From Ylistrum balloti (Eukaryota), in the NCBI RefSeq assembly GCF_031769215.1, contig NW_026782586.1:62001-126000 (forward strand): DNA of 64,000 bases, read 5' to 3'. The notes under the pieces were generated by a model. That model saw only the letters and a program-made list of their open reading frames with translations, searched no databases and had not been told where the DNA came from. Shown here one piece after another: positions 2,216 to 61,176 of the stretch (the stretch's first letter is position 1; the number at the start of each line of letters is the position of its first letter). The translations under genes were made by a program, and so were the position numbers.

Positions 2216-3213
2216 TGTAACACCACTGTGCCCCCGCTCGCGTTGTGTTCTCGAAGAAAAAAGCCAAGTCCAAATTCCTTTCTACTTGTTGTTTATATAT
2301 AGCACAGTGAAGTCCACAAGAAGGCTCGCTCCCTATCACGCTTCCGTAGAGTCAGTCCCACAACCGGAAGTTGTCCCTTTGGCATCCCTAGATCCAAGTG
2401 CAATGAGCAGCGAAAACTGCCCAGTATTTATAGGGGAAGCCAAAAGTCGGACAACTCCGCGGGTGGAAATTCCTCAAGAACAATGGTTGATCCTGGCGAC
2501 CCAACCATATCAAGATTCTGTCAAAATGATACCGATTTGGACACAAAATGCAGAATCTTGGCGCCATTTGTTATTGTGTATGGGATAAGTGCTGATGGAT
2601 TGAGGATGCACATTTAGTGCAACGACCGTTGATTGGTCCATTCCCCAATCACAGGAAGCTATTGTCTGGAATGACAATTGGTACTACCAGTCTTCAGACC
2701 CACCGCATATTGGTCTCTATTTACATATATAATAATCAAATACTTAACAATTACGCAGAACCTAACATCTGCTAAATCGGTCATGTTTACCTTACATACT
2801 CATAATGCTGTACTAAGCAACTATATACAATTTACTATCTAAACTATTATTTTCTCATGACCTTGAAATATTTTACGTAATAATTATACAATTATCGTTA
2901 CTCTAACTGTACTGCACTGTTTATATATACACATCACATTTGTCTATATGAATTCTGGATACCATTGTTTACATAAGTCCCTACTTGCCTATGCAGTGCT
3001 GGACATGTAAAGGTCCAATTTGGTGCAATATACTATATACATATTTAACACTCAATTCCTGTTATAAGCTAAATTAAACAACAATATATTCATGAAAATT
3101 ATTATTTTCATATTTAAAATTTCCAACCAACATTATATACAATAAAATACTGCTTCCTGTTCATATAACCATTTCCGGTTTAACAACAGAGTGATCTACT
3201 TGATAGTGTCACA
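2216..3213 (-). repeat. 3' LTR of env-bearing gypsy
   Basis: 998 bp direct repeat of 12012-12990 (one ~19-bp indel, few SNPs); TGTGAC...GTTACA on the - strand. Confidence 0.95.
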
Positions 3214-4024
3214 TCCGTCCCATACAAAAAAGAAATATAGGCGGTACTAAACTACTGACTATATTTCCCAACAATTTTTAACAATATCAAGGCGAAATTT
3301 TGGCGCTGTTCTTTAATACGGACTTTTACCTTTACTTTCTTACAGCTTTCACACGCCAATCTTTCGCATGCTACATGCAAGCATTATTTTAACTATCTAC
3401 TTGAATTAACAAATTATCTATATGTTTATAAATCCCTTACAACGGTTATAATTCATTGTCACTTAATAATATATATACTGAGAATTATTCGAAAGTCACT
3501 CAATCTTGTCCCAATAGTCATCCCACTGTGACCCTCACATCAGTTCATGGAGATATCCCATATAATAATATAGTTCCTTTAGAAACCATCACATTTTGTC
3601 TGGAAAGTTCTTGGAATGTAACAATCCAAATAATGAAAATTCATCTGGAAAGTTCCACCACATTTCCCGTCTTAAAATGTTCATAAGAATCACGAAATGT
3701 TCATAGGAATCCCATCTTCTGTTCTTCAACAGTTAGTATAACAGCTACACATGTTAAATTCACGTGACTTTATCCTTAATTATCCTTCTTGTCACGAAGG
3801 ACATGCCAAAGGGACTAGTTCCCGTCCAGTTCCTTTCTTATATCAGGATAAAGATCCTGTATCACTGTCTTCCTGGTGGATACCAGAGGGTTATTTTTTA
3901 CTGTTTTTACCTCCTCTGCTACTCCACCTGGTGATGAGGGGTTTGCACCGCCCTCAACGTTGTCGTCGTTGTCAGGTTCACCTGACATCACCTGTAAGTC
4001 TTCCCGGTTCCCATTTAAGTTGAG

Positions 4025-5982
4025 TTAAGGTGGGAAGATTGTCAATTCTTTTAAACACAATTCAGCAAGTCGTCTGTCGAAAGTCGAATCCGGTCTAGGG
4101 AAGTCTACTTCAGAAGTGCTGTGGCGATGTAAGCGTGGTACCATTGTAACATTAGATCGCCTTGGTAAATCTTGTGGTACATCAGGCTCTCGACGAGGCA
4201 AATAAGGCATTGGTAAAGAACTCAACTCCAAATCTCCCTTAACAACTGACCTTTTACTATACCTACTATTCCTATAATTTTGACATTTATCTTTTATTTT
4301 ATGCCGAAAGCAATATCCTATCACTAAGAAAGCAATGACTATACTTCCAATTATGAGGTATGTTTGGATAGAATTATCTGATTCCATAGGAACCAATTTG
4401 TGCATATTATCTAGTTCCGAAATCAAAGGATCAATAGGAATTTCTTTTATAGACTTCAACTTTGGAGGGATTTTGATTGAAGTTATATTTGGAAATTTCT
4501 GAGAAAATGGCTTCCATAGTTTAATTGATCCCATAAAGTAATTATGTATTAAGGCGTTAAAGTCATTAGACAAGTTAAAAGTACTTTCATAATGATGAAA
4601 GGATTGTAAGATCATGAACTCATTTGAAGCAGAGCAGCCCTCATTTAAGCTTATAATATCAATGGGACTTTTCGTGCTAAGGCTGTCTAAAGAGGAAGTA
4701 ACAGGACATTTTAGATGAAAGGTCAATGATTATTCTGAAACAACTACCCAGTGTCCATCAGACAAGTGTTGGGCTTGAGGAGTTGAAGTTCTAGCTTGCA
4801 CCACTGTGGTACAGTATTTATCCATATCTTTAATCCATCCCACAAAAAGATATATTATACACATTTCGTTTGACACTAAAGTATATATTGGATTACGAAA
4901 TCTGCAGTATTTCTTGACGCTACCTCCACATTCCTTAACTTCATCAAGAGATAAGATAACAAATTGTGTCTTGGCTTCATTCACCGCCAAGAGGCCAAAA
5001 GATTTGTTTGGTTTGTTTCCAAATAAGGTAATAAAAGACTGCGTGCTCTATACACAGTGAATTTATCTGATATATCAGTCAAAGGAATGGCAATGTCTAC
5101 CATTAAGTCGTCCTGTCCAATCAGGGTTGTACAAGTCACAGTCTTATAAAATGTCCAAAGGTCTACGTCAGGGTCAAAAGGAATTTGCATATTCATACTT
5201 AGCTTACTTTTAACATCAATTAGTAATTTCCTTAGGTCAGGGGGTGCAATAACAGTTGGCGAGAGATGTCCAAGAGACAACATATTAATTTGAAGCTTCA
5301 AGTGGTTTAAGTAATCTCTAGCTAAACCAACTATTTCCTTAGCTTCACTTAAGGCTCTATCTATCTTTGTATACGTATGCAAGTATTTGTCAATATCTTG
5401 AACTGAATGACTAAGATTCATCTCTAACTTCGCTAGATCAGTTAAAGTATCTATTACTTCATTAATATTCTTTCTGTTATTTGCTATTTGGCCTTGAGCA
5501 GTATGAAGGATAGTTAAACTTTCCTTAACAACATGTTGAAGGTGTACCTGATTATTTCTTAAGGTCCTAACATTAGTTTTGATTGTATCAATATCATCTT
5601 CATCTAATGTACCAAAAAGGAAGGACAGTGCCTTACCTACAATTGGAATCAACGCTCTTTTAGTTCGAGTCTGATGTAGTGTTTTTATATTTCTAAGTTC
5701 TTCTTGTTTTGTCACATCGACTTGAGGCCATCTTTTACATTTAGTCGACCGTCTACGAGATTTTGTTTGAATACATTCTTTTACTTTGCATGGTTGTTTC
5801 TTGAGTACTACTGTTTGAGGTTTCCTGATTTTAGCTACAGGTTTCTTGGTATAAGAAGGCTGACATCTTAGACCTAATAATGAACTACGTGAATAATGTG
5901 TATCTATTGGTTTATTACTTTTCAGACTTAAGTTTTCGAATCTACTTGTAAGGGATTCAGTTGGAGGTGCCTTGTAAGCCAT
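4025..5982 (-). pseudogene. env: F-type (class I fusion; baculovirus F/errantivirus-like) envelope glycoprotein, frameshifted into three ORFs
   Basis: Furin site plus fusion peptide RTKR|ALIPIVGKALSFLFGTLDEDD, heptad repeat, Cys-rich ectodomain (4730-4990), N-glycosylation sequons, TM YLIIGSIVIAFLVIGYCF and a cytoplasmic tail (4025-4726). Confidence 0.88.
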
Positions 5983-6431
5983 CGTTCTCCTAAAAACAAA
6001 AAGATAGAAACTTGTTGCTGGGAATCAGGATGTCTTCTTTTACATGAAGTTTTGCCTAAGGTTTTCTTCATCAAGCTAATTCGTCTAGCCGATCTCTGTA
6101 AATTGGCAAGTCCCTTGAAAAATCCAGGTTTAAGGTTAAAATCTAAATCTAGCTGAGCCATTAACATAACATAGGTCCTATTTGTCATTCTAAACACATG
6201 TCTTAAGTGTTTTATACTGTTCACAATGAGTTTACGGGGTTGGAGATTTGCCTGGTTAATTCTATGGTATTTTAAGATTAATTCAGTGACATCTGGTACC
6301 CTAACGTGTAATTTTTGTATCTTTAAGCATAAATTATCTAAGACCAATGCTTCTTGATCTACGTTTATCACAGAAGGATTTGTATCTGCAATCCCCCATT
6401 TGGATGCTGAGCCTTCTTCCTTTCTTGCCAT
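5928..6431 (-). CDS. Unknown 167-aa accessory ORF between pol and env
   Basis: Open frame MARKEEGSASKWG...; its ATG lies 6 nt after the acceptor-like CCTTAATCTGTCTTGCAG (AG at 6439-6438). No family recognised. Confidence 0.5.
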   Translation of the reverse strand: MARKEEGSASKWGIADTNPSVINVDQEALVLDNLCLKIQKLHVRVPDVTELILKYHRINQANLQPRKLIVNSIKHLRHVFRMTNRTYVMLMAQLDLDFNLKPGFFKGLANLQRSARRISLMKKTLGKTSCKRRHPDSQQQVSIFLFLGERWLTRHLQLNPLQVDSKT

Positions 6432-6482
6432 AACTTTCTGCAAGACAGATTAAGGACATTTTACTTGGAGGCTTTTAATACC

Positions 6483-9400
6483 TTATATCTCTAAGCATGC
6501 CTGAAGTAGTTTTATCGTCTTAGCTAATCTAACTTCTTTTGGGGCATTCTTTTCCTTATTGGACTTTCTCTGTTTTCTAGGGAAATCTACAATTTCCTTT
6601 CTACATTCTATTTTTGGGGTTCCTATTTTCTTAATGACATTAACTTCCTTTTCCTCATTAGTACTACTGTCCTCAGATTCAGTTACGTCATCCTCTGTCA
6701 GGTCCTTGTCAACTGACTGATAGTCTGGGAGTTTATACTGTCTTTTGCATTGTCTTAACTGTGTCAATGACATGTCTTCATCATCAGAGTCAATAACTTG
6801 AGCTTTTTCTGCTAATTCGCGAGTCCTAAGACGTTGCCTAAGTTATGTTAGAGGAATATCATCCTCGTCATCAGAATTTGACCTTTCTTTTCGTGTTCTT
6901 TTAATGACCCGTTGAAGTGGCGGGTCCTCCTCTGGTTCATCATCAGAGCTACTTACATCTTCTGGAGGTACTACATAGGTGGACTTCCTCAAAGGCCGAC
7001 CTATATTATCCTTAGGCAAACTCCATTCATCAACATTTGCCAGACGCAAATGTCTTGCATGTGTCTTAGTGACTTCTCCTGTGAGTTGGTTTCTTACCTT
7101 AAAACTCACGGGTCCTGTTTGTTCAACAATCCTGAAGTATAGTGTCCATTTGTTATCAAGTTTAGATGTTCTTTTATGATTTCTTACATATACAGGATCA
7201 CCTACTTTTAAGTCCTCATCCTTGCTATTTCTGTCAGCAAGTTTCTTTTGTTTTTTCTTAGCCTGTTTCAAGTATCGGTGCACTAATACAAAGGACTTGT
7301 GCTACTGTTCTAGTGCGATTCTGTGTAAGTCTTCCCCAACATATCTTCGTCTCGGCTTGAGAATTTTGTCCAAAGGAAGAACAACGTCACGGTTATATAA
7401 CAGCAAGAAAGGCGATGCCTTTGTCACTTCACTGGTGTGAAATCGCACAGCGGCAAGAGTTTGGTTCAAGAAAAGATCCCATGTATTTGTGCTTTCTTTG
7501 ATCTTTTAGCCATTATATCTACCATGGTTCGGTGAAATCTCTCCACCTTTCCGTTTGCTTGGGGGCAGTAATAAGACGTAGTAATGTGATTATGTTTAGG
7601 GCTTCTAGTGTTTCTTTAACTGATTTTGCAATATTCTCAGAACCATTGTCTGATACGATGCTTAAGACACAGCCATATCTTGGGAAAATTTCTTCTAAAA
7701 TGAGATGCACTATATTTGCTGCTGATTTATCAGGTACAGGAAAAGCCTCTGGCCATCCTGAGTACACATCTACAAAGGATATTATGTACTTATTCCCCGA
7801 AAGTGTTTCTGGATAGGGACCTGACAAGTCCATGGCTATTTTTGCGAAAGGGTAAGGAGGAATGTCAGTATCTTGTAGAGGGGGCTTGGGATTAGCACTA
7901 CTTCTCGTCTGACATGTAACACACTTCTCTATGTGCTGGTGTACTTTCTTGTACATCATTGGAAAATAGTACTTCTTACGCATAGTGTCATAAGTTTTAT
8001 CTAGAGCCATATGACCTAAAGACTCATGATGCTGCTTAATCACAAGTTCCTCAAATTCCTTAGGTATGTAGAGCCTTAAGTTTGGGTCATCTGAGTCAGC
8101 GTTTGACAGATAGTATAAGACGTTGTCTACTACCAAGTATCGCTCCTCCTCATTCTTTGTTGCCTTACCATTACTAAGTCTTGTTCGCAAATTCTTTATG
8201 TCTGTGTCATTTTCTTGGGCATCTTTAATGTTAATGTCTTCTGGTAAATCCATATGAGGCTTAATGATGTCATCTGGCGGATCTACTTCACAACTGGCGT
8301 AGTCTTTAGGACGGAAGTAATTGGAGTTCAGGGCACCTACTTCTAAGGTTCTATCATCAACATCTAAGATATCTTGTGCTTCTTCTGGAGCACCTTGAGC
8401 TTCTTGAGCTTCTTCACTGGTACCAGAAGGTTGTCTAGACAGTAAGTCTGCACAACAATTATACCTGCCCTCTATATATTCCACCTTACAGTTATATGCT
8501 GCCACACTAAGAGCCCACATAGACAGTTTCTTATTTGTAGTCTTTTTATCTGAGAAGATGTAACAAAGTGGTCGATGGTCAGTCCTTATTACAAATCTAC
8601 TATTATGTAAGTAATTGTCAAGCTTTTGTAATGCGTACACTACAGCAAAGGCCTTCTTCTCGATTACAGACCACCTTCTTTGTGTTTGACTGAGCTTATG
8701 TGACAAGTAACATATTGGCTTTTCTTCACCCTCTTTCTTCTGCGTAAGACATGCGCCTATGCAAGAATCTGAAGCATCCGTATAAAGGATATAGTCTTGG
8801 CTAGGATCTGGGTGAGCCAGTAATGGTATTACTGTTAGACTTTCCTTAAGAAAATCAAAAGCATTTTGGCACTTTTCTGACCATTTGAATCTTGCATACT
8901 TCTTTGTTAAGTCCATGAGAGGTTCAGCTATCTCGGAAAAATTGGGTATAAATCTTCTGTAGTTATTCCAATAAATCCTCGTACTTCTCTGACACAAGTT
9001 GGAGATGGTAAAGTTCGAATAGCTTCTACTTTCTTAGTGTCGGGTTTTACTCCTTCATCTGTTATAATAAACCCAAGATATTCAGTTTCGGATTGAAAGA
9101 AGCTGCATTTCTTAAGTTTTAACTTGAGCCCATGTTGTCTTAGCTTCCTAAATACTATCTGGATATGTTTAAGGTGATCCTCTGGTGTCTTACTATAGAT
9201 CAAGACATCATCAAGATAGGCAGTAGTAAACTACTCACATTCCTGTAAGACAATGTTCATCAACTCTTGGAACACAGCAGGGGCATTACTTAAACCAAAG
9301 GACATCCTGTTGAACTGGAAAAGACCTCTATGGCAAGCAAATGCTGTCTTAGGTTCACTTTCCTCGTCTAACTGAACTTGCCAATACCCACTCTTCAAGT

Positions 9401-10627
9401 CTAAGGTAGTAAAGTGCTTTGATTGGCCAAGAAGGTTTAAGATGTCATCTATCAAAGGAAGTGGTACTGACATGGGTGTCACAATCTTATTTAGACTTCT
9501 AAAATCGACACACATCCTTTTGCTGCCATCTTTCTTGTCTACAACAACAAGACCAAAGGACCAAGGACTTCTTGACCTTTCAATTACTTTAGCCTCTAAC
9601 ATCTCATCTATGGCTTCATTTATGACATCGCGTTTGTTGAGTGGGGTGCGGTATTCACGATTTCTTATAGGTTTGTTGCTTCCTGTGTCAATATGCATCT
9701 TCACTGTGTCAGTATGACCTAAATCTGAGTCTTTCTTCGCAAATAGGTCTCTATTTCTTTTAAGAAGTTTAATAGTGTCTTCTCTATATTTTTCTGGTAC
9801 ACTTACATCTATAAATCCTCCTTACTGTTGCCATTTTTGTCAGTTACAGTTGCACTACTTATGTCTTTTGTTTCTACAGCTGTTGCCTTCCCTACTACAC
9901 TACCACGTCTTAAGGTCATTGTTCTATTGGTATTGTTAACTAATAAGACTGGTATCTAAAAGGGATTTTTTACCTGAGCTATGCTTTCCTGTAATACTAC
10001 CCCGGGTTCATTATTTATACAAGGTGTCTCTTCACTTTATATTTCAGGAGAAATATTCAGTAATCTTGACTTGGGCACATCAAAGCTTCTAACAAGTTTA
10101 ATATTGCATATGGTAGCTGTTTGTGGTCTTAAGACAGTTTTCTTGGTCATGCGAATTATAGAAGCAATATGTACATCTTCCTCTTAGGGAACATATGTCT
10201 TTCCTATACGCATGCATGCCAAATCAAAGTACATTCTAACGCCATTTTTTCTTAACCAATCTAGTCCAAGAATACAGTTCCTATTCATTCCTTTAACAAC
10301 ATAAAACGTGTGACTTAAGGTCATGCTTCTCATTTGAATAGGAAGTTCAACAGAACCTATTACCTCGATTGGTGTACTACCGACTGTCTGGAGGGTCATG
10401 TTTTCTTTTCTTAATCTTGGCTTCTTTGGAAAAGTCTTAAAAATCCTATCATTTATAAGGGAAACCTCAGCTCCAGTATCTATCAAGACTCTAACTCTTT
10501 GTTTACCTAATTTTATCACAGTTGTACTTGGGTTACCTGATATATTTATTGTCTTAGATACAGGATTACTTGACCTAATTTTCCTCTCTCCGTCGGTTTC
10601 CTTATGGGGAGAGGTTTTTAGTTTAAC
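6483..10627 (-). pseudogene. pol: pol of env-bearing gypsy (PR-RT-RNase H-IN plus charged tail), frameshifted
   Basis: LIDTGAEVS (10184-10519); RMCVDFR and TTLDLKSGYWQ (9231-9704); YTDASD and RTDHRPL; HHESLGH...CVTC; AMDLSGP; VSDNGSEN (7519-8997); GDPVYVRN...GPVSFKV (6843-7283). Confidence 0.93.
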
Positions 10628-11835
10628 TGAGTATTTCTTGGGTAACTACCACTTAGGCGAGGGCAATTTCTTTTTATATGTCCTACGTTATTGCAATGCC
10701 AACACACTAACGTGGGTGTATATAACCGGTTGTTTTCGTGATTGTCTTGTCTTACGTCTTGTCTTAAAGCCTGCACATGATTAGATTTAGGAGGAACTAA
10801 TGGTGTTTTTGCTTGAGAGCTGTTTGTTTGGGTGTGGCTATTGCCTTTATGATTCCTTGGATGTTGGAACCTACTTTGTCTATCCGAATTGTACTGTCTG
10901 AACCTTGGTCTGTCTATAAATGGGGTGTGACCTTGCCATAACATTATCTCTTTTACATCTATAGCATTGTCTTTGTCTTGAATGGTCTATTTCCATAGGG
11001 ACAATTTGTCTTGGGTCGTTGTCAGAATGTCTTGGGACTGTTTTTGGTTCCAATCTTTGGGAATCTACTTTATGAAAGACATCACTTTTATCTTTTCTTA
11101 AATCAAACCGTTTTCTTAAGTTTTGTTCCCTCATTGCTATGCCTACAGCGTCTTCTGAAGTCTGGGGGTTTCTCTCATGACTTTCATTTTAAGGTAGTCA
11201 TATGCCAACCCGTCGCAAAAGGTATTAACTAATTGCTGTTGCACTATTCCCCTATCATTGTCTTGAGCATTAGTGTAAGCGTCTTCAGCTATCTGTAGAA
11301 GTCGTTCTGCAAATATTTGCACACTTTCAGTGTCTTTTTGCCTAGTTTTTCTCAACAAGGCCAGGGCCTGTTGTGAGTCTGTTATCTCAGCAAACCTTTG
11401 CTTTAATAAATTCTTTAAATCCTCCCAACTAAGGATTCCATCTCCTTCCATAGAATCAATGTACCTTTTAATAAAATCACCTACTGACCCCGTACTTGTC
11501 TGGTAAGCTATATTTGGTATGGACCTATTGTCCAACCCTACCAATTTAGCATATTTTTCTATTTCTTTGATCCAATCCTTAAACTTTGAAGGGTCACCTT
11601 CAAAAATCTTTACTATTTGAAACACACCCTGTGCTGTCATAGCCGCCGAAAGACTTTTGAACTGTTGCGCCATGCTTATGAGTACCTCCCCATCATCTTG
11701 AGGAGTCCCTCTCCCAGGGGCACTTGAGGATGGATTTTCCCGAGGGGGGAGTCTTTCATTTAACTGGGGGGTACCTAGGTTAGCCATTCTCTCAGCAATA
11801 CTACTCATTTCTTCATCTGATAACAAGCTAACCAT
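10618..11835 (-). pseudogene. gag: gag of env-bearing gypsy, frameshifted
   Basis: FEGDPSKFKDWIKEIEKYA capsid-like motif (11143-11835); CCHC knuckle CWHCNNVGHIKRNC (10618-10944). Confidence 0.88.
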
Positions 11836-11983
11836 GACGTCATAAGATATCCTACTTCATTACAATTAATAACCTAATTATAAACAATTGAAGATGCCGC
11901 CAAAGGTCAGTGATAAGGTACAAAATGGGAAAAGAGTTCCACCTACCTTATAAGAGCCAATCCAGTTAAGATGTTGTTACTGG

Positions 11984-12001
11984 ATCCTGGTCACGGCACC
12001 A
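11984..12001 (-). promoter_or_regulatory. Primer-binding site, tRNA-His type
   Basis: TGGTGCCGTGACCAGGAT on the - strand, complementary to the tRNA-His 3' end (...GTCACGGCA-CCA); 10 nt from the 5' LTR. Confidence 0.8.
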
Positions 12002-12011: not shown

Positions 12012-12990
12012 TGTAACCCCACTGTGCCCCCGCTCTCGTTCTGTTCCCGAATTCCTTTCTACTTGTTGTTTATATATAGCACATTGAAGTCCACAAGAAG
12101 GCTCGCTCCCTATCACGCTTCAGTAGAGTCAGTCTCACAACCGGAAGTTGTCCCTTTGGCATCCCTAGATCCAAGTGCAATGAGCAGCGAAAACTGCCCA
12201 GTATTTATAGGGGAAGCCAAAAGTCGGACAACTCCGCAGGTGGAAATTCCTCAAGAACAATGGTTGATCCTGGCGACCCAACCATATCAAGATTCTGTCA
12301 AAATGATACCGATTTGGACACAAAATGCAGAATCTTGGCGCCGTTTGTTATTGTGTATGGGATAAGTGCTGATGGATTGAGGATGCACATTTAGTGCAAC
12401 GACCGTTGATTGGTCCATTCCCCAATCCCAGGAAGCTATTGTCTGGAATGACAATTGGTACCACCAGTCTTCAGACCCACCGCATATTGGTCACTATTTA
12501 CATATATAATAATCAAATACTTAACAATTACGCAGAACCTAACATCTGCTAAATCGGTCATGTTTACCTTACATACTCATAATGCTGTACTAAGCAACTA
12601 TATACAATTCACTATCTAAACTATTATTTTCTCGTGACCTTGCAATATTTTACGTTATAATTATACAATCATCGTTACTCTAACTGTACTGCACTGTTTA
12701 TATATACACATCACATTTGTCTATATGAATTCTGGATACCATTGTTTACATAAGTCCCTACTTGCCTATGCAGTGCTGGACATGTAAAGGTCCAATTTGG
12801 TGCAATATACTATATACATATTTAACACTCAATTCCTGTTATAAGCTAAATTAAACAACAATATATTCATGAAAATTATTATTTTCATATTTAAAATTTC
12901 CAACCAACATTATATACAATAAAATACTGCTTCCTGTTCATATAACCATTTCCAGTTTAACAACAGAGTGATCTACTTGATAGTGTCACA
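12012..12990 (-). repeat. 5' LTR of env-bearing gypsy
   Basis: 979 bp repeat of 2216-3213, followed by the PBS. Confidence 0.95.
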
Positions 12991-16000: not shown

Positions 16001-19000
16001 AGTATCAAGGAGATTATTAATCCCGAAGAACTCGCGTTGATGCTAGAACAGGATTTCAACGAACCCAGTGATACCAACGCAACTTATTCGCATGAGGATC
16101 GTCAATTCCTCAACCTGCTGAAGGACGGAATTCACATCGACAACGGACATTATGAGATGCCATGCCGTGCCTTCCTAACAACAAGACGTTGGCACTAAGT
16201 CGACTTAAACAACTGAAGAAACGCTTGGATTCTAACAACAAATACCGGGAGCACTATACTTCTTTCATGGCAGAGCTAATAGGAAAGGGCTTTGCAGAAA
16301 GAGTCCCAGAAGCTGATATCGAGCTTGAAGACGGGCACGAATGGTATATTCCTCATCGTGGTGTTTATCACCCCCAGAAACCGAATAAAATTCGGGTAGT
16401 CTTTGTTCAAGTTCAAGGGAGAATCCTTAAATTCTCACCTTTTACAGGGACCAAATCTTACCAATACTCTTATCGGTGTCCTGTGTCGTTTCCGTAAAGA
16501 GCCGATTGCGTTTATGTGCGACATCGAACAAATGTTCCACCAGTTCAAGGTAAACGTTGAACTCTGAAACTATCTCCGATTCTTGTGGTGGGAAAATGAA
16601 GACAGCCGTGATGAGCCGATTGAATATCGTATGAGTGTTCATCTTTTCGGCGCCTCGTCATCGCCTGGTTGTGCCAACTTTGCCTTGAAACAAATGGCCT
16701 CTGACAACGAAGAGGAATTCGGATCAGATATTGCGAACTTTATAAAGCGTGACTTTTATGTCGACGACGGGCTGAAGTCCTTACAAACTATCGACATGGC
16801 TGTGGACATGATCAAAGGCAGTAAGGATATGTGCGGCAAAGGTGGATTGCGTCTGCATAAATTTCTGTCAAGCTCGAAGGAGGTGTTGAAGCACATTCCT
16901 GAAGAAGACCGAGCCAAGGGACTCGAGGACATTGACGTAGTCCATGATAAACTTCTGTTGAACGAGCTCTTGGCATACAGTGGTGTATAGAATCAGACTC
17001 CTTCCGGTTTCGAGTTGTTGTGAACGATCGCCCGCTGACTAGACGTGGGGTTCTATCAACTCTCTGCTCGGTTTACGATCCATTGGGATTTATCTCTCCG
17101 TTCATTCTCGTTGGCAAACAGATTTTGCAGCAGATGTGCAAGGGTCATGCGGACTGGGACAGTCCACTTCCTGACACTTTGACGACAAAATGGGAGCGTT
17201 GGAGAGAGGACCTGAAGAACCTCAAGAACATTCAGATCAAACGGTGTTTGAAACCTGATGATTTTGGAGATGTCATCTCGACTGAGCTTCATCATTTCTC
17301 GGATGCGAGTACTAGTGGTTACGGCCAGTGTTCTTATATTAGGCTAGTCAACAGTGAGCAACGAGTGCATTGTGCGTTGTTAATGGGCAAGGCAAGGGTA
17401 GCTCCGTTAAAAACCCGTTACGATTCCCCGGCTAGAACTTGTGGCAGCTTTGGTGTCCGTGCGAGTGAGTTCCATGCTGCTTCGGGAACTTACATGCGAC
17501 CATGTTACGCAGTGGTTCTGGACTGATAGTAGTGTGGTCCTGGGATATATTGGGAACGATTCTCGGAGATTTCATGTATTTGTGTCCAATCGCGTAAAAC
17601 AGATTCGGGACCACACAGAGCCATCTCAGTGGAAACACGTCAGCACTAGGAACAACCCCGCTGATGTTGCGTCTCGAGGTGCAACGGCTGACGATTTGGT
17701 GAAGCATACAAATTGGTTAAGAGGACCAGAATTCCTTTGGAAAAACGACCCCTTTGTAGAATGTGATATTTTGGACAAACCCGTTCTTTCCCCGGATGAC
17801 CCAGAGGTTAAGAAGGTTCAAGTGTTTGACACGGTGGTTGAGCCAGCTAGTGAAGGTTCATTACTGGACTGCCTGGAATATTTCTCCGATTGGACGAGAG
17901 CCAAGAGAGCAGTAGCTCTGTGCTTGGAATTCAAACGCATGTTGAGGACCAGGTCTATTCGGAGGCGAAATGTGTCCGTAGAGGACCTTCAGAATGCAGA
18001 GGTGGCTATTGTCAAGCTTGTTCAGGAAAATGCCTTTAAGGAGGATATCGAGCTTCTTCGTGCCTCCGAGATGTCTTCAGATAACTGCGATCAGAAACGG
18101 AAATGTCGTCTCAAAGGTACATCGTCTCTGTGTGGTTTGGATCCGTTCCTCGACGAAAGGGGAATTCTGCGAGTCGGTGGACGTATTCGACAGGGTGAAT
18201 TTAGTACCGAAATGAAGCATCCTGTCATTCTCCCCAGGAAGGCTCATATCACTGAGCTTGTGGTTCGTCATTTTCACCAGATTGTGAGGCACCAAGGACG
18301 TGGTATAACCACAAACGAAATTAGAGCCAATGGCTTCTGGATTATCGGATGCAGCTCTGCTGTTTCGAGTTGTATCTACAAATGCGTAACATGTCGCAAG
18401 CTGCGAGGCTGCTCTCAGGGTCAGAAGATGGCTGACTTGCCTGCAGATAGACTGCAGTCTGAACCTCCATTTACGTTTAGTGGAATGGATCTCTTTGGTC
18501 CCTTCTACATCAAGGAAGGCCGAAAGGAGTTGAAGAGGTACAGTGTTCTATTTACGTGCATGTCGAGTCGTGCCATCCATCTGAAAACGGCAAACTCTCT
18601 GGATACCAGCTCGTTCATTAATGCACTAAGAAGATTTCTCTCTATTCGTGGTCCAGTAAGACAATTGAGATCGGACAGAGGAACAAATTTTGTGGGTGCT
18701 GAGCGCGAGCTCAAAGAGGTTCTTCTGGAACTTGATGATCAGGCGCTTCAGCGGTACCTCTCCGACAAGGGTTGCGATTACATTGGCTTCAAGATGAATG
18801 TACCCTCCGCTAGCCACATGGGTGGTGTATGGGAGAGACAGATCCGTTCGGTCAGGAATGTTCTTGCGTCGTTGATGCACCAGTCTAGTTCCCAGTTGGA
18901 CGACGAGACCCTTAGAATCTTCTTGTGTGAAGTTTCGCTATAGTGAATAGTAGACCACTCACTGTTACTAACCTGGATGATTCACACTCGGTGGAACCTT

Positions 19001-19654: not shown

Positions 19655-20229
19655 TGTAACAGTACGTGATAAGGCGGTAGGAGTTAGCTCCCTTGATCGG
19701 AACTCTCTAACTTGGTTGGGTGCGTTTGTTGGTAAAACCTGCGGGAACCGAGACCATGGGGTTGGGTCTCTGCGAGGATTCCTGTTTGTTTTCTGCGTTG
19801 CGAGTAAGCCCAAGGAGGTTATTACTATTAATTGTTATTTTTCTACAATCGTATTTGTTCCGGAATGCTATCAAATACTGTAATTTCGATTCTAGTCAAC
19901 AAATTGCTTGTCAAATTCGCTAATATGCATAACTGATTTCCATCAAATATTTACTGGCAGATTGAAGTGCTTTCTATGTAATTAATGTTTTATAATCGTA
20001 ATCTAATAGTGAGAATCTGTAAACTTTGTATGTTTTAGTTTTCACGGTGAAGTTGAAGTTTAAGTGTGTAGATTCTGCGTTCGATATATCCAATAAACAA
20101 AGCTTCATCTGTAATTCACAAAGACTCGTTGGCTTACTTACGTGGGAGTTGCGGCCCCTTGATCTTAACCAGTTTGCGAAAACTATAGTGCACGTCACCT
20201 ATATTGGTCTGTGTGCTACTGTCGTTACA
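19655..20229 (+). repeat. 3' LTR of BEL/Pao element
   Basis: 575 bp repeat of 879-1452, preceded by the PPT and followed by the TSD. Confidence 0.95.
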
Positions 20230-24725: not shown

Positions 24726-25230
24726 ACTCATCTGTATTCCTACAGGAGTTCTTGAACGCCATCTGATGATTTTAGTTATCACAGAGTACTTATAGAAATA
24801 AGCCTTGTAATCACTGTACATGATGAATGTGTATTGTATTCTGGAGAGAAATGGTACAGAAGATATTTGTAGTAGGGGCAGCTAATCTAAGTTAGACAAA
24901 TTCCTTTAATGTAACAATGTTCTCATGTTTTGTAACTTTATTTTGTTAATCTTTTTCTGTTAGTGTTAAAATCAATTTCTCGTTTCTCCCTCTCTAAACC
25001 CACTGAAAAATTGCATGTTGCAATTTTAATTTAAAGGGGCGGATGTTGTGTTGTACTAATGGGTTGGGGGAGGGAGGTAACTCGAATTGATTGGTATTAA
25101 ATCATTGTTTGGTTGAGGTTGAAACTCTTCATATAGAAGGGAGTAAAAAAGTGATGAATAATAAAATTTTGGAAAGGAGATAATTTTCCTCTCACATGCA
25201 GCGCTAACAATCTGTCATTGTAGTTGCAAA

Positions 25231-26067
25231 TGTAATGAAAATTGAAGTATAAGAGTAATGTCCCTTGAATATGACTTGTGTAATGGAAATTGAAGTATAA
25301 GATTTATGTCCCTTGAATATAACTATAGCTAATTACATATTGGTTAATTTGTTCATCTAATGATTTTTGTCGATTAATACAAATGTTTATATTTATGTAG
25401 TAAGATATGGAAAGGTATTTTGTACTATGTTAATAGTTTAGTATGCATCATTTATGGTAAATTAAATATCAACAATTGTCACACCTAATGAAAGAGTTTA
25501 TTAGACATGTAAATAGAAATTACTTTGAATTATTGCGAGATACACAGACGACGAAAGACTTCTTACTAAGCAAGTAACACAGTCATTTGCAACAGGTGGT
25601 AGGTGAAAGTCTGAAATAGTGGCTTTTCCGAAACCGCTTGTCAAGCTGGTGCGAGAGTTGTTTAGTTCTCACCGAAGCTTGGACTTTTGACTGTGGGTAG
25701 CTAGCTATAGGGTGAGGTTAGAACCCGAGCTAGGAACACGAGCAAGGGTTGACTTAGTTGGTAGGACAACCTAGTGCTTAGTCAGGACCGACTAAGTGGT
25801 ATTGCTCGGCGACTAGTTCAGTAGTTGGAACTAGGGTTAGGTGAAGTCACTGGGTGTCGAGCTTGCACTCACGCTCACATGCTAGTCAGAACAGTCTGTG
25901 TCGGGACAGCAGTCCATGTGAATACTAGTTCGTTCGTTAGTTTTATTGTTAACTCAGGTAGTGTTTGCTGTTCCACGCTATATGTATATATCGGCATTTG
26001 TTAGCTAGTATCTCTGCAAGGAATCAGAGACTTACCCACCGTGTGTAAAGCTAGGCTGCACGTTACA
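25231..26067 (+). repeat. 5' LTR of element C
   Basis: 837 bp; starts with a ~48-bp internal tandem duplication; lacks 35 bp present in the 3' LTR. Confidence 0.95.
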
Positions 26068-26071
26068 AAAT

Positions 26072-26089
26072 TGGTGGCAGCGGTGGGAT
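26072..26089 (+). promoter_or_regulatory. Primer-binding site, tRNA-Leu type
   Basis: TGGTGGCAGCGGTGGGAT, 4 nt after the 5' LTR; complement of the tRNA-Leu 3' end ATCCCACCGCTGCCA-CCA. Confidence 0.85.
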
Positions 26090-26339
26090 CTTGCTAGCTT
26101 TCATTTTTTTTATATATAGTATTGTTGTTTGTTTTACCTAGAACTTTGCTGGTTTGCTATGATATATCTATGTTGAAACATGTCAGATCAAGACCAGCTA
26201 TCTTTACAAAAAGATATTGATGCTATCTCTGAGGAGATAAAGCAAATCGAATCTAGGAGAGTCTCTAGACCTGGGCAATGTCGACACTCGCACACCGCCC
26301 ATAAACGTTAGGGTACCGTATCGTGACTCGGGTATCGGT

Positions 26340-29300
26340 ATGCTGCGTTCAGAAAACACGAGTAGCTATAAGAAACTCGGGGCCAGACCGAAACACAGTT
26401 TTGATTTGCACACTACAGAACAAGGTCGTTTGTCTTCAGACATATTGGAGGAAAGTCGACTGACCTTGCCAGAGAGCCCCTACACCCCTTATACTGATTC
26501 AGACAGATACGCTAGTCCTTCTCAGCAAACACCTCCTGCAAACGTCACATATAGACGAAGCAAATTGCCACGCAATTCGTCATTGATGGAGGATCGTAGC
26601 AATCTACAATACTCTTCATCACTGGCTCGTGAAAAGTCTAGTTGTCACAATGCACGAGTTAACCCTGCAAAGTATGCCGGGACAGGTTCCTGGATTGACT
26701 ATCAAGCTCATTTTGAGGCTTGTGCAACTTTAAATAGGTGGACTCCTGAAGAAAAGGGATTAAACCTTGCCGTGGCGTTACGAGGACAAGCGCAAGGTGT
26801 GTTAGGTAACCTAAGGGGTCCTCTTGGTCAAAATTATGATATGCTGGTAAAGTCCTTGGAGGAGCGCTTTTCTCCGCCTAATCAAACAGAGCTTTATAGG
26901 ACACAGCTAAAAGAACGCCGACAAAGAGCTACTGAAACTCTCCCAGAACTGGCCCAAGATATACGCAGATTAACGAACTTGGCATATAACACGGTGCCTT
27001 CAGACGTCAAAGAAACCCTGGCTAAGGAGCAATTTCTTGATGCGCTTGTAGAATCTGATCTGCGAATAAGAACCAAGCAAGCCAGACCAGTAGATTTGAA
27101 CGATGTCCTTCGTCATGCTGTTGAGCTAGAAGCTTATCTTAACTCTGAAAAGAAGATAAGGGAGCAACAGGCTTTCGCCAGATCTATTGACTCTGGTATT
27201 GCGAAAAATGAGAAGGTTTCTGAGAACAAGGCGGCTGAAACAGTAGACCTGGTAGGAATTGAGAAGTTACTTTCTTCCATGCAGAAGTCAGTAAGTGAAC
27301 TTACCAAGGAGGTAAACGCAATGAAGCAAAACAGACGACAGAACCGATTTGCGCGGAGGAGCAATAGTCAGCCAACCGCACAACGATTTACGGACAGAAA
27401 ATGCTATGAATGTGGGTCTCCAAAGCATCTAAAACGTGACTGTCCTAACAAGAAAGGTCAAAGTACTAAGTCTAGACAGCAAGATGACAACGATCAGAAA
27501 CCCAAAGTTACTGTGAATCTGAATAACGTAAAGAAGGAATCTGGTGTGTTCCTTACTACAGAGGTTAATGGGTACCTAATCAGCCTTTTAGTGGATACTG
27601 GTGCTACCGTTAGCCTGTTGTCTGATGAAGTCTTTGACAAGCTTGGCGTAGGCAAACAGCCTGCACTGCAGCCATTGAAGTGTGATGTACTGTCAGCTTG
27701 CGGCTCCCCTCTGGAGATAAGAGGGAAGGCCAATTTTGAATTAGTTATTGGGAGTTTCCGTTGTGCTGAAGAGCTAATGGTTGCAAAGCTGAACATTGAC
27801 AGAGTACTTGGTCTTGACTTTCTGCGTAAGTATGGCTGCATTGTGAACATGACAGACGGTTCTCTTCAGATTGAGGAAAAGAAGCACGACATTAAATTTG
27901 AAGGCTTAAGTGGGTGCTACCGAGTTAGTGTGTCAAACAACTCTAAGATACCTCCACAAAGTGAAGCAGTTATTCACTGTACTGTAACCATTCCTGATGG
28001 AAAGACAGCACCTACAGGCCTCGGTATAATTGAACCTCTAGGTACGTTCCTGGAATCAGACAGAGGTGTAGTTGGGAAAACTCTGGTTACAGGTAGTAAC
28101 CAAGTACCGGTAAGATACATGAATCCCTCTTCTGAACCACAAACGTTGTATGCAGGAACGGCTATTGGACAATACACTGTGGTAAATCACGTCAAGGCTC
28201 TAAGTAGTGTAAAATGTAAGAAAGGAGAGTCTCTTCCATCACATCTATTGGAGTTGTTTGAGAGAAGTAAAGAGTCTCTCTTACCTCAGCAGACAAGTCA
28301 GGTTCGGGAATTGCTTCTAACGTACTCTCCATTATTCGCTGAAACTGATAAGGATCTTGGGCGAACTGACATTATCAGGCATAAAATTGATACAAGAGAC
28401 GCAAGACCGGTGAAGCAACCGTTGCGACGAATGCCTGCACCCATGGCCGACGAAGTTGACAAACAGGTAGATGACCTCTTGGAAAGAGATGTAATTCAGT
28501 CATCGACAAGTCCTTGGGCATCAGGTGTAGTGCTCGTTAAGAAGAAGGACGGAACGACACGATTTTGTGTCGACTATCGGCGACTAAATGCATTGACAGT
28601 GAAAGATGCGTATCCTTTACCGAGGATCGATCAGTCCTTGGATCAACTTGCTGGTTCTAAGTGGTTCTCCACTTTAGACCTCTGTTCGGGCTACTGGCAA
28701 GTTGAAGTAGATGAGAGCTCTCGGGAAAAGACTGCATTCTCCACAAGGAAGGGTTTGTTTGAGTTCAAATTAATGCCATTCGGGTTGTGCAATGCACCCG
28801 CTACATTTGAACGAGTCATGGAGACTATCCTTGCTGAACTACATTGGCAGACCTGTCTAATATATCTGGACGATATCATAGTGATGGGAAAATCATTCGA
28901 AGACATGATCAATAACCTGACACAGGTGTTTGACAAACTACTTTCAGCAGGTCTCAAATTAAAGGCCAGAAAATGTTGTTTGTTTGCTAAGCAGGTAGAA
29001 TTCCTTGGTCACATTGTGTCTGAGGAAGGATGCGCTACTGACCCAAAGAAGATTAAGACAGTCCACGAATGGCCTGAGCCAGTAACTGTCTCTGAAGTTA
29101 GATCCTTCCTCGGTCTTTGTAGCTATTATAGAAGATTCATAGAGTCATTTGCTGCAATTGCAAGACCTCTTCACAGACTGACCGAGAAGTCAAGAGCTTT
29201 TGTCTGGACCAAAGAATGTCAGGAGGCATTTTATGAGTTGAAGTGTAAACTGACAAATGCACCAATTCTCGCACATCCCAATTTTACGGACTTATTCATC

Positions 29301-31233
29301 CTGGACACTGACGCAAGCAACAGTTCAATTGGTGGAGTTTTATCTCAAATACAAGACGGGGTTGAACAACCAATAGCGTACGCAAGTAGAGCACTCACGA
29401 AAAGTGAACGAGCGTATTGTGTTACAAGAAAGGAACATCTTGCTGTTGTCTTCTTTACCAAATACTTCCGGAACTATTTGTACGGGAGACGGTTTCTGCT
29501 GCGTACTGATCATAGTTCGCTGCGATGGCTGACTAGCATGAAGGAGCCAGAAGGACAGTTAGCCCGCTGGCTAGAGGTCTTGTCTACGTATGACATGGAA
29601 ATCCAACATAGACCTGGAAGGCTCCATGGGAACGCTGATGCGTTAAGTAGGATGCCTTGTAAAACCCCAGATGTTCACCCAACAGGAATTTGTTGAAGCT
29701 ATTCAAACAGTGAAGCCGTCTAAGTTATCGATAGACAGTACTTACGAATCGGTGACTTTCAGCAAGCTGCAAAAAGAGGATCCTGATTTGTCAGAAGTAA
29801 TGCAAACAGTTGAAACTGGAACTCAACCAAGTTATGCGGAAATCAGCACAAATAATGCCTTTGCCAAATCACTGTACAATCCGTGGAGTTCTCTAGTAAT
29901 AGAGAATGGTGTGTTGTGTCGGAAATGGACCTGCACTGGGAACAAAGAGGCAAAGATCCAGGCCGTGGTTCCTAGTAAGGAACGGGTGAAGGTACTTCAG
30001 CAGTGTCACGACAGTCGAACAGCCGGTCATCTAGGGGTAACAAAAACTCTATCTAAGATAAGACAGAGTTACTACTGGCCGGGGATACAACAAGACGTCC
30101 AACGCTACATTGCCGGTTGTGATAAGTGTTGCCGTAGAAAGAATCCTCAAAAGACAAAGCGTGCTCCTATGCAACTGATACAGGTTGGGTATCCGATGGA
30201 ACGAATCGCGACAGACATCCTTGGCGAACTTCCGATGACAAGGCAAGGCAATCGGTATATTTTGGTTGTGTCCGACTACTACACCAGATGGACAGAAGCC
30301 TTCCCTATGCGCAACATGGAATCTGTTACAGTTGCAAAGCTCATAGTTGAGGAAATTGTAGCAAGGTATGGAGTACCAAATTCTAAACACTCCGACCAAG
30401 GAGGTCAGTTTGAAGGAAAATTCTTTACTGAGATGTGTCGACTTTTGGGTATCAACAAGACTCGCACGACACCGTACCACCCGCAATCGGACGGGATGGT
30501 CGAGCGTTTTAATAGATCACTCGCTACCATGCTGAGCGCTTACGTGAACGAGTCACACACAGACTGGGACGTGCAGCTTCCATATGTTATGATGGCCTAT
30601 CGGTCTGTCGAACATGAAAGCACGGGTTGCACACCGAACAGTCTGATGTTGGGCCGAGAGGTCAGCACTCCTCTTGATCTGATGTACGAGATGCCAGTCC
30701 CAATAAAAAGCATACCTCAAAATGACTGGGTGTGGGTCCTCCAAGAACGAATGGAAAAGACACACGCGCTTGTCCGAGAAAGCACACAAAATGCTATGCA
30801 ACGGCAGAAAAAGTATCACGATCGGAAATTGTACTGGCAATCATTTGAGCTAGGAGATCGAGTTTACGTATTCTTTCCGAGGAAAGAAGCCGGACAATCG
30901 CCGAAATTTGCATCGTATTGGAAAGGGCCATTCGATGTTATCGAGAAAATCAATGACGTGAACTACAAGGTCAATTGTGGCCAAAAGAATCAGCCACAAG
31001 TCATTCACGTTGACCGCATGCGCTTAAAGAAAAGCCAGCTACTATCCCATGAAAGATCAGACCTTGACGAACCTCTTTCTGATAAATATGAATGTTGCTC
31101 CGATACCGAGTCTGCAGAATCATTTAGTGATGCTACTGAAAGCGAGGACGAGCATGATTTTTGCATGGGTCGTCCAAAAAGACTTAAACGCAAACCATCA
31201 AAGTTCGGTGACTATGTCATGACCTTGTGCTAA
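26340..31233 (+). CDS. gag-pol polyprotein of element C (1118 aa + 520 aa; one frameshift near 29680)
   Basis: Gag PAKYAG...WIDYQAHFE; CCHC CYECGSPKHLKRDC; LVDTGA; YLDD; DTDAS; HDSRTAGH...CDKC; TDILG; HSDQG; VERFN; GPF motif. Confidence 0.92.
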
Positions 31234-31606
31234 AGCAATGGAACCGGAGCCCAAGTTGTCTGGTCCATCTGCTAAGCGGTTGTGCGATATAGGTGTACAG
31301 ACCGAGGGACCCTACACTTGTAAGAGAGTGATTAGAAAAATTGTCACATACAGAGATGGTGACAGGAAGGTAAAGGAGGTGGACGGACAGATTATCATAT
31401 AATATGTCCATACCTGCTGGGTGCAGAATTTGGGACACTATATCTTTCGTAAAACAGGATTATTGTTGACTGTATTTCATGATCAAGTTGTTGTTTTGTA
31501 TCGGTTGTTAAAAAAAATAATAATAATAAAAAAAGAAGAAAAAAATGAATGAAAATAATTTGTTAATGATCGTTATGCGGGACGCATAAGTCGGAGGCGT
31601 GGGTAA

Positions 31607-32478
31607 TGTAATGAAAATTGAAGTATAAGAGTTATGTCCCTTGAATATGACTTGTGTAATGGAAATTGAAGTATAAGATTTATGTCCCTTGAATATGATT
31701 ATAGCTAATTACATATTGGTTAATTTGGTCATCTAATGATTTTTGTCGATTAATACAAATGTTTATATTTATGTAGTAAGATATGGAAAGGTATTTTGTA
31801 CTATGTTAATAGTTTAGTATGCATCATTTATGGTAAATCAAATATCAACAATTGTCACACCTAATGAAAGAGTTTATTAGACATGTAAATAGAAATTACT
31901 TTGAATTATTGCGAGCGCTGTTATACTGACTGTTGGTAAAGCTTTCAGAGATACACAGACGACGAAAGACTTCTTACTAAGCAAGTAACGCAGTCATTTG
32001 CAACAGGTGGTGGGTGAAAGTCTGAAATAGTGGCTTTTCCGAAACCGCTTGTCAAGCTGGTGCGAGAGCTGTTTAGTTCTCACCGAAGCTTGGACTTTTG
32101 ACTGTGGGTAGCTAGCTATAGGGTGAGGTTAGAACCCGAGCTAGGAACACGAGCAAGGGTTGACTTAGTTGGTAGGACAACCTAGTGCTTAGTCAGGACC
32201 GACTAAGTGGTATTGCTCGGCGACTAGTTCAGTAGTTGGAACTAGGGTTAGGTGAAGTCACTGGGTGTCGAGCTTGCACTCACGCTCACATGCTAGTCAG
32301 AACAGTCTGTGTCGGGACAGCAGTCCATGTGAATACTAGTTCGTTCGTTAGTTTTATTGTTAACTCAGGTAGAGTTTGCTGTTCCACGCTATATGTATAT
32401 ATCGGCATTTGTTAGCTAGTATCTCTGCAAGGAATCAGAGACTTACCCACCGTGTGCAAAGCTAGGCTGCACGTTACA
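31607..32478 (+). repeat. 3' LTR of element C
   Basis: 872 bp repeat of 25231-26067; preceded by a 7-bp-stem hairpin TTATGCG-GGA-CGCATAA and the PPT. Confidence 0.95.
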
Positions 32479-48188: not shown

Positions 48189-49510
48189 CTGTGGATTAAA
48201 GTTTTTTTTTTAAAGCTTGTCATTACTCATGTAGAAAGCATAGATAGATGTATCACATAATCTGTCATCTGTTCAACAATACCCATTGAAAATTGTTATC
48301 ATTACATAACCTAGCCCGGCTTGGAGTGGCTGAGGGTTTTCCATAGTGACATCATATACATGATATCCAATGTGACATCACTAAAGAGTGAGGATACTTC
48401 TAATTTAGAGTTTACATTGGTATGACATAATGCTGTTTTCAAGAATGTGAATGAGATATAATTTAGTTTTTAAATGCTCATCGGCAATGGTTGTAATATG
48501 GTATACATACATTGCACTGTCTGTCTGTCAGTACTTTAAAATATTCTTGTAAGCGCCCTCTTACCTTTATGTATAGACTGATTTTAATGAATCTTCTTGC
48601 AAATATTCCATCCCAGAATAGCTCAAACGAGTTGGCTTTAGAGATATTTTCAATCTTTTTAGCAGAATTATGTCCTTTATATTGGCAAATATAGTCATTT
48701 TGCAGAAAAGACAAGAACTTTTTTAAAGTGACATCACGGTAAAAACGTTAATTTCATCAGAAAAGAAATATCTTGATGGGATGACATTGCAGTTAGTTAA
48801 AATCAATTTTATTGCACACAAGACAAATTGATTGGACAAATGTTATTACCAACTTACTTGCTTCCTTTCCGTAACAAATAAATACATACAAAATAAATTT
48901 ACCTTGTAATAGTCTAAGATTAATTTATATGAGGGACAATTCAGTCTTGGTTATGAAATTATGACACAAAAACAAAATTTTCAAACACATATTTCAAAAT
49001 GAATGCTAACATGTTTAAAAGAAATAACCTTTGTCCTTTTGTGTCATGATATTCAGAAGATAGTTTCACAAGAGGTTTTCAAGAAAATAGGAGTAAAAAT
49101 AATTTCCCAGAATTTGTTGTGTTCATAACATGGTGTCTTTAGAAGCTTTTTTTAACATTAAGAACTTGTGTACATGTTCAGATGACTTGATGTGTTTGTT
49201 CTTGTATATAAATATTACTCTCAATCAAAATAGTGACCTCAACACATTGAGAGCAATTTTATAGTAAACTATAATTGGACACCGTTACGACCTCAACATA
49301 TGCAAATAAAGTTATTTTTATCACATTTTGAAAATTACTTGAAACGTGGATATTTTATCTCTGAAGAATGTTGTGATTTTCAATAAGACAATAACTGTTT
49401 TGAAAATACATACCCTAGGAAACCTTATAAAGCGTACATTGGTTCATTTGTTGGGTAGTAACACGGACACCAAGTTACAACTCGGACATACCACGGATAG
49501 AGTTTATTTA

Positions 49511-50360
49511 GATATCACGAACCAGATTGATATACTGGGAGTTACCACGAATCCGGTTAATATTTATACTGGGAGATACCACGAACCAGGTTAATATTTA
49601 TACTGGGAGATACCACGAACCAGGTTAATATTTATACTGGGAGTTACCACGAACCAGGTTGATATTTATACTGGGAGATACCACGAACCAGGTTGATATT
49701 TATACTGGGAGATACCACGAACCAGGTTGATATTTATACTGGGAGATACCACGAACCAGGTTGATATTTATACTGGGAGATACCACGAACCAGGTTAATA
49801 TTTATACTGGGAGATACCACGAACCAGGTTGATATTTATACTGGGAGATACCACGAACCAGGTTAATATTTATACTGGGAGGTACCACGAACCAGGTTAA
49901 TATTTATACTGAGAGATATCACGAACCAGGTTAATATTTATACTGGGAGATACCACGAACCATGTTAATATTTTTACTGAGAGATACCACGAACCAGGTT
50001 AATATTTATATTGGGAGATACCACGAATCCGGTTAATATTTATACTGGGAGATACCACGAACCAGGTTAATATTTTTACTGAGAGATACCACGAACCAGG
50101 TTAATATTTATACTGGGAGATACCACGAACCAGGTTAATATTTATACTGGGAGATACCACGAACCATGTTGATATTTATACTGGGAGATACCATGAACCA
50201 GGTTAATATTTATACTGGCAGATACCACGAACCAGGTTGATATTAATACTGGGAGATACCACGAACCATGTTGATATTTATACTGGGAGATACCACGAAC
50301 CAGATTAATATTTATACTGGGAGATACCACGAACCAGGTTAATATTTATACTGGGAGTTA
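49511..50360. repeat. 34-bp minisatellite, about 25 copies
   Basis: Unit GGGAGATACCACGAACCAGGTTAATATTTATACT in head-to-tail tandem with no spacers. Confidence 0.95.
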
Positions 50361-50519
50361 GCCAGGATTTCCTTATTGTTGAAAGTCAGTATCAAAACAT
50401 AGTTTTTATAACCAACAATTTTCTCCATTTCACCATTTTGCAATAAATTGATTATATAAAGACTCGAAACACGCGAAAGCATCACGGATAAAAAGTAAAT
50501 GGTTCATGTAACGGGAAAG

Positions 50520-58633: not shown

Positions 58634-59269
58634 TCCGCACCAACTCCCCACTCCCTACAATTCTGTCTTCGCACCACCCCCACTCCCTACAATTCTGTCT
58701 CCGCACCACCTACCCACTCCCTACAATTCTATCTCCGCACCACCTCCCTACAATTCCGTCTCCACACAACCTCACCAAAATTCTTTCTCCGTACCACCTC
58801 ACCACAATTCTCTCTCCCCCCCCCCCCAACCCTACAATTCTGTCTCCGCACTACCTCACCACAATTCTGTCTCCGCACCACCTCCTCACTCCCTACAATT
58901 CTGTCTCCGCACCACCTCACCACAATTCCCCCCCCCCCCCCCAACCCTACAATTCTGTCTTCGCACTACCTCACCACAATTCTGTCTCCGCACCACCTCA
59001 ACACTCCCTACAATTCTGTCCCCGCACTACCTCACCACAATTCTGTCTCCGCACCACCTCCCCACTCCCTACAATTCTGTCTCCGCACCACCTCGACACT
59101 CCCTACAATTCTGTCTCCGCACCACCTCCCCACTCCCTATAATTCTGTCTCCGCACCACCTCACCACAATTCTGTCTCCGCACCACCTCCCCACTCCCTA
59201 TAATTCTGTCTCCGCACCACCTCACCACAATTCTGTCTCCGCACCACCTCCCCACTCCCTACAATTCTG
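58634..59269. repeat. Composite 34/27-bp C-rich minisatellite
   Basis: Core CAATTCTGTCTCCGCACCACCTC followed by CCCACTCCCTA or ACCA; two poly-C interruptions. Confidence 0.93.
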
Positions 59270-61024: not shown

Positions 61025-61176
61025 ATTTTTATTTGTTTTACATCAGATGACATCACGACAGCTGTACTATTGTCGAGACATTTGATAATCCCTACTTTAC
61101 TTGATATGGATGTGAAGTGGTTTTTACTGCAGAATTTATCAGTTGATGGTGGTTATATTGCATACCTCTACATCAG

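Follow-up and report, generated by a model that had tools for sequence, protein, structure and literature searches.

The minus-strand LTR element at 12990-2216 of the window (the whole 64,000-nucleotide stretch of DNA that was analysed) is very probably a damaged copy from an envelope-carrying gypsy family that has two conserved extra genes, here called ORF-A and ORF-B, between pol and env, with ORF-A, ORF-B and env likely expressed from three separately spliced messengers that have a leader exon in common. As read from the sequences, the layout is more complex than the original prediction of one donor and two acceptors, since it comprises three candidate acceptors and two putative accessory genes.

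Between its LTRs the element carries gag, then pol (domain order PR-RT-RH-IN), then an F-type env, all three of them broken in the window copy (Table 1). The two LTRs (12990-12012 and 3213-2216) have TG..CA ends; an alignment of one with the other has 18 mismatches and one 19-nt gap, and the target-site duplication AATC is present on both flanks of the element. A search of the host for tRNA-His(GTG) gave 15 pattern matches and 4 genes called His (3 loci scanned). The Baculo_F domain scores 38.1 bits (cut-off 24.1) in the env remainder of the window and 55.8 bits in a sibling env, which has a signal peptide, an RTKR furin-like site and a transmembrane segment. The donor and both acceptors were found where they had been predicted, with ATGs 6 nt and 7 nt downstream of the acceptors. 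(A 30-codon ORF ends inside the LTR.)

Table 1. Features of the element in the window copy, in window positions.
Feature	Position	Strand	Remarks
5' LTR	12012..12990	-	TG..CA ends; AATC precedes
PBS, tRNA-His	11984..12001	-	10 nt past LTR end; complementary to host tRNA-His(GTG) 3' end
Splice donor AAG/GTAGGT	11941..11950	-	exon end 11947
gag (Retrotrans_gag, zf-CCHC)	10618..11835	-	split over several frames in window copy
pol (PR, RT, RNase H, IN, acidic tail)	6483..10645	-	stops and frameshifts in window copy
Acceptor 1	6438..6455	-	exon start 6437; AG kept in 7/7 unspliced siblings; exact junction in copy L016
ORF-A	6015..6431	-	139 aa in family; extends to 5928 (167 aa) in window copy only
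Acceptor 2	5990..6010	-	exon start 5989; directly 3' of the family's ORF-A stop
ORF-B, first 95 codons	5698..5982	-	215 aa in siblings
Deletion point of window copy	5698..5707		724 bp gone between 10-nt direct repeats
F-type env remainder	3815..5706	-	furin-like RTKR, fusion-peptide-like segment, transmembrane segment; broken in window copy
3' LTR	2216..3213	-	AATC after

The family layout becomes apparent from the sibling copies, of which the host genome holds nine further family-1 matches. Seven of the nine have about 720 extra bases at window position 5707/5698 (724 between the 10-nt repeats); the other two have deletions of their own at that site, yet retain env sequence that is absent from the window copy. 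The missing 724-bp stretch contains the second part of ORF-B, acceptor 3, the env start with its signal peptide, and most of the pre-furin part of env. By this loss, ORF-B was fused to env in the window copy and the signal peptide was removed. The 333-aa ORF of the window was considered as an env and rejected, since it is this deletion-made fusion: its maximum hydropathy is -0.04, vs 2.95 in the sibling env, and it has no signal peptide. The acceptor at 5990, which had been thought to feed the env-containing ORF, would thus feed ORF-B in the family, while env has a candidate acceptor of its own, deleted from the window copy. The accessory ORF that had been proposed is real, but its 167-aa length is peculiar to the window: in 7/7 siblings covering the site, a stop at window position 6014-6012, directly 5' of the acceptor 2 pyrimidine tract, gives 139 aa. 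Acceptor 3 of the siblings contains the ORF-B stop, and the env start with its signal peptide follows 28 nt further on. The order in the family is donor ... pol - A1 - ORF-A - A2 - ORF-B - A3 - env, with a single donor in the leader.

In the ranking of splice sites, which used a home-made matrix with approximate frequencies, the window donor comes first of the 460 GT sites in the element; among its 723 AG sites, the acceptor at 5990 comes first and that at 6438 fifth. The donor is kept in 7/7 unspliced siblings that have a leader. Conservation of the two acceptors, on which the original prediction depended, is complete for acceptor 1, but at acceptor 2 only 3/7 siblings have AG and 4/7 have TG, with another AG 3 nt on. 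In the seven-copy sister family (family 2), which was found via ORF-B, the donor GAG/GTAAGC occupies the same leader position and again ranks 1 of 460. Between its first acceptor (A1'; rank 6 of 813, shown for three copies) and ORF-A' downstream are 104 nt that contain no ATG. Its second acceptor (A2') lies 9 nt before ORF-B' in 6/6 (rank only 47 of 813) and its third (A3') about 35 nt before env in 7/7, and the stops of the preceding genes fall inside A2' and A3' or a little ahead of them.

Family 2 is 87% identical to family 1 in RT, 72% in gag and 56% in env; ORF-A' is 30-31% identical to ORF-A, and ORF-B' 39-42% identical to ORF-B. Between the families, ORF-A aligns with a score of 75 (at most 62 in 2,000 shuffles) and ORF-B with a score of 358 (63 in 2,000 shuffles); the local scores of both exceed those of all other frames, and third codon positions are the least alike. 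The corresponding pN and pS are 0.46 and 0.79 for ORF-A and 0.385 and 0.745 for ORF-B, with synonymous sites saturated, and were obtained from a protein-guided alignment, which favours low pN. Within family 1, where all comparisons use one common reference copy, pN is mostly near half of pS in ORF-B and env, and about equal to pS in ORF-A (e.g. 0.024 vs 0.023); ORF-A is broken in three of six full-length sibling copies. The expected conservation of ORF-A is thus present at the protein level in family 2, but not in the substitutions among family-1 copies. At the level of sequence, both accessory ORFs are conserved as proteins across two families.

Are the predicted splice sites used? Copy L016 consists of an LTR, the PBS and the leader, followed by the acceptor-1 exon, and the 5,509 nt that it lacks run exactly from GT to AG (11946-6438). 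It is integrated, with CAAT on both flanks, and is best read as reverse-transcribed spliced RNA. Spliced leaders were found in 1/9 copies of family 1 and 0/7 of family 2; the short family-2 copy L137, considered as a second spliced copy, was rejected, its deletion lying about 35 nt past the donor instead. Further joints come from contigs of three runs (X1-X3), which were aligned to the window and L016; the runs are only presumed to be RNA and derive from a different organism, whose element is about 90% alike. X1 and X3 contigs cross the A1 junction without an added gap, X1 reaching 51 and X3 60 letters into the leader; in X2 no more than 12 aligned letters go across, and it was excluded, leaving two of three runs. 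One X1 contig (one of three runs) matches ORF-B up to the acceptor-2 AG and then 39 letters of the leader, the letters between not being shown. (A near-identical run of uncertain kind and flat depth, X4, has only unspliced forms.) Of the junctions that had been predicted, 11947 to 6437 is therefore supported by L016 and by the X1 and X3 contigs, and 11947 to 5989 by one X1 contig. These joints and L016 support the complex layout as it was first proposed, with at least two subgenomic RNAs and an accessory protein that has no named homologue. The element likely gives rise to more than one spliced RNA, acceptor 1 being well supported and acceptor 2 more weakly, by the one contig. One may infer that acceptor 3 is spliced as well, and that ORF-A and ORF-B are translated.

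In the proposed scheme, unspliced RNA would serve for gag-pol and for packaging, and the common donor would be joined to A1, A2 or A3, making ORF-A, ORF-B or env the first long ORF. Because each gene ends inside the next acceptor or a little ahead of it, every messenger would offer a single ORF as its first.

The cassette of two genes is restricted in its distribution. From the 94 env matches in the genome, 20 more distant loci were examined, and none of the 20 has an ORF-B match (the ORF-A comparison there is too insensitive to count). The distance from the pol stop to the env start is 44-90 nt in the 10 distant loci where both anchors were found, vs 1,176-1,192 nt (five copies) and 1,301-1,419 nt (six copies) in the cassette families. 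In an unrooted RT tree of 18 of the 24 rows (6 with short matches being left out), made up of elements of this genome only and no named references, the four cassette rows fall on one side of a branch with 99/100 support. The cassette-less relatives also possess a donor, and an acceptor-like tract immediately precedes their env; they would thus export their unspliced RNA without ORF-A or ORF-B.

What might the two proteins do? Word-based protein searches, restricted to lengths near that of the query, gave no homologue of either. When 1.84 billion proteins were searched with a profile, three credible ORF-B homologues emerged (E 1.8e-38 to 4.4e-5), all unnamed singletons on short contigs and of the same length as ORF-B; one repetitive match was dropped. 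Pfam has no match for either ORF, except that one family-2 protein matches Dus (E 0.069). For ORF-A, the HMM and structure searches that had been suggested led to no homologue of known function: there is one weak PDB sequence match (E 0.094), and the AlphaFold models of ORF-A and ORF-B are unreliable (pLDDT 38 and 51) and weakly helical, the best hits of a fold search with the low-confidence ORF-A model being unrelated common helical bundles (Z 6.7 at most). Paralogy between ORF-A and ORF-B is not detectable (probability 0.2%). The proteins are basic (pI 9.9-10.5), and a membrane segment such as a FAST- or sORF2-like fusogen would have is absent, the maximum 19-residue hydropathy being 0.65-1.33 in six proteins. 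HIV Rev acts on the balance or the export of unspliced RNA. By analogy with Rev and with Cer1 CERV, ORF-A and ORF-B could be basic, non-membrane, helical regulators that are nuclear or bind nucleic acid, at least one of them acting on the balance of unspliced RNA or on its export, a proposal to which somewhat less than an even chance may be given. It is weakened by the cassette-less relatives, which splice env without these genes.

Several other explanations must be weighed. Internal deletions are common in these families (the window copy, L017, L018, L019 and L137), and the donor and acceptor have AG/G in common, so L016 might have arisen by microhomology deletion of the ordinary kind, and such DNA, rather than splicing, might be the source of the contig joints. 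However, the chance that one deletion, limited to AGG pairs, would match the top donor and one of the three acceptors is 3 in 10,360; none of the five other deleted copies has its deletion at splice sites; and the same joint occurs in the element of a different organism, making this explanation extremely improbable. An unlikely, if less remote, alternative is that acceptors 1 and 2 alone are in use, with env translated from the ORF-B messenger through leaky scanning or re-initiation, or else expressed from a promoter inside the element, as happens in some Tor elements. The env ATG lies only about 35 nt past the ORF-B stop, and env of Tor3b/4b is expressed from an internal promoter (PMC4402516). 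No leader-to-acceptor-3 joint was found in the contigs of the three presumed RNA runs, and X1 and X2 contigs pass acceptor 3 unspliced; contigs, however, cannot prove absence. Against this alternative, acceptor 3 is kept in 7/7 family-1 and 7/7 family-2 copies shown, with approximate ranks of 8 of 731 and 5 of 813, and the cassette-less relatives have their own acceptor-like tract before env.

Other doubts concern the proteins themselves. The spliced layout could be right while ORF-A and ORF-B act not in RNA export but in counter-defence (anti-silencing or anti-piRNA) or in trans-activation of the LTR, a reading that deserves as much credence as the export role, again a little below evens. Proteins in conflict with the host often evolve fast, and these two, with their 30-42% identity between families, evolve far faster than RT, gag and env (87, 72 and 56%); the cassette-less relatives, moreover, manage without them. 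On the other hand, there is no positive evidence for such a function, and the basic charge suits either role. It is very unlikely that ORF-A and ORF-B are captured sequence in decay and that duplication of env acceptors produced the splice sites as a by-product. The near equality of pN and pS in ORF-A among young copies would fit such decay, as would the frequent cassette deletions in copies of both families and in X2 and X3 contigs, but between the two families, with their saturated synonymous sites, both frames are still open and alike as proteins, and ORF-B has outside homologues of its own length.

If the spliced cassette is taken at its fullest, an invertebrate gypsy lineage would have become a complex retrovirus independently, with three nested messengers from one donor, stackable units of acceptor plus gene, stops that double as the next acceptor, and two new families of regulatory proteins, one of them Rev- or Tax-like, beside a fusogenic envelope. 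This fuller picture is offered tentatively and is slightly more doubtful than the export role. Two unnamed protein families are provided for testing, and the presence in one genome of sister families with and without the cassette constitutes a natural comparison.

Accessory genes on multiply spliced RNAs are regarded as a mark of complex vertebrate retroviruses, and extra ORFs are reported for plant and rotifer elements. In the literature searched, mostly without subscription papers, Repbase/Dfam annotations and bioRxiv supplements, no gypsy element is described that has, between pol and env, several ORFs each fed by an acceptor. In Tor elements, splicing or an internal promoter serves env only (PMC4402516). 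The "ancient errantiviruses" with an F-type env (PMC13524379) resemble the present element in their LTR-gag-pol-env layout, PR-RT-RH-IN order, Baculo_F env, tRNA primer and multicopy state. Splicing and accessory or extra ORFs are not mentioned in the text of that survey or in seven of its supplementary files (0 term matches). Its first filter excluded pol-env gaps above 1,000 nt, and the gap found here is 1,176-1,419 nt, although a later manual step could still catch larger gaps; the present finding suggests that surveys limiting this distance miss such elements.

The best precedent for the role of ORF-A and ORF-B may be CERV of the C. elegans element Cer1, likewise a novel accessory protein of a gypsy element made from a spliced mRNA, and needed for export of the unspliced RNA (PMC10309623). 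CERV, however, is one 517-aa protein encoded by five exons, partly in common with gag, and stands in the place of env, whereas here there are two small separate ORFs beside a real env; the likeness is one of description. In the Drosophila MDG1 group, too, gypsy-class elements have a pair of small accessory ORFs, but these sORFs lie upstream of gag, are unspliced and occur in elements without env, and sORF2 is a membrane protein (bioRxiv 10.1101/2025.03.14.642691). Similar in plan are the complex vertebrate retroviruses, in which, as in the lentivirus central region (PMC2238898), one leader donor and several acceptors serve small accessory genes between pol and env. The present element differs in being Ty3/gypsy, with an F-type env and single-exon, non-overlapping tandem ORFs, and no second coding exon was seen in it. 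The resemblance would be convergent, and a gypsy element with an F-type env and spliced accessory genes would show that the step to a complex retrovirus evolved again outside the Retroviridae.

In the family of the window copy (family 1), the acceptor that precedes env (acceptor 3) contains the stop of ORF-B, the second accessory frame. Its pyrimidine tract encodes the last residues of that protein, LFYV there and TFSYD in the sister family (family 2). A contig from run X2, one of three sequencing runs presumed to be RNA (X1–X3), matches the end of ORF-B up to the acceptor AG (L016:3030-3259) and continues into 246 unrelated letters. The protein P0001 ends in VFSY, and this resemblance, at the protein level only, hints that its gene may carry the same embedded acceptor.

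Runs X1–X3 also include versions of the related element with internal deletions, joined at window positions 5416/6483 and 4450-4464/11551, which are the deepest contigs in some of these runs. Their ends are not splice-like, and one form lacks both accessory ORFs and the env start. In the env families without the accessory cassette, a basic ORF of 76–104 aa lies upstream of gag (L095:rc 2208-2438, L097:4696-5010, L099 and L113) and stops close to, or right at, the donor-like site of these families; it is possibly an alternative accessory gene.

The gypsy element under study is inserted inside an older BEL/Pao-like element. The second gypsy element in the window has no env-sized ORF.

Other repeats in the window
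Feature	Window positions	Remarks
BEL/Pao-like LTR pair	879-1452 and 19655-20229	~96-98% alike
BEL/Pao-like element, domain matches	17411-18943	weak Peptidase_A17 and rve matches
Second gypsy element	25219-32247	LTRs 98-99% alike
Second gypsy element, long gag-pol frames	26241-29696 and 29647-31233	
Tandem array	49395-50510	34-nt units
Tandem array	58645-59330	27/34-nt units
Tandem array	60254-61069	62-nt units

Families 1 and 2 share a conserved leader stretch of about 50 nt that follows the donor (window 11949-11855 against the family 2 leader, L049; score 57, 0 of 2,000 shuffles); elsewhere the leader is not conserved. The conserved stretch contains CACTGAC, which resembles a branch point, and in family 2 an AG that looks like an acceptor lies 7 nt upstream of gag; together these features could possibly represent a short leader intron or a cis element. 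One X3 contig reads through the stretch unspliced, and the integrated spliced copy (L016) lacked it when packaged. In both families, 10 nt separate the primer site from the LTR end (window 12011-12002), a spacing greater than usual.
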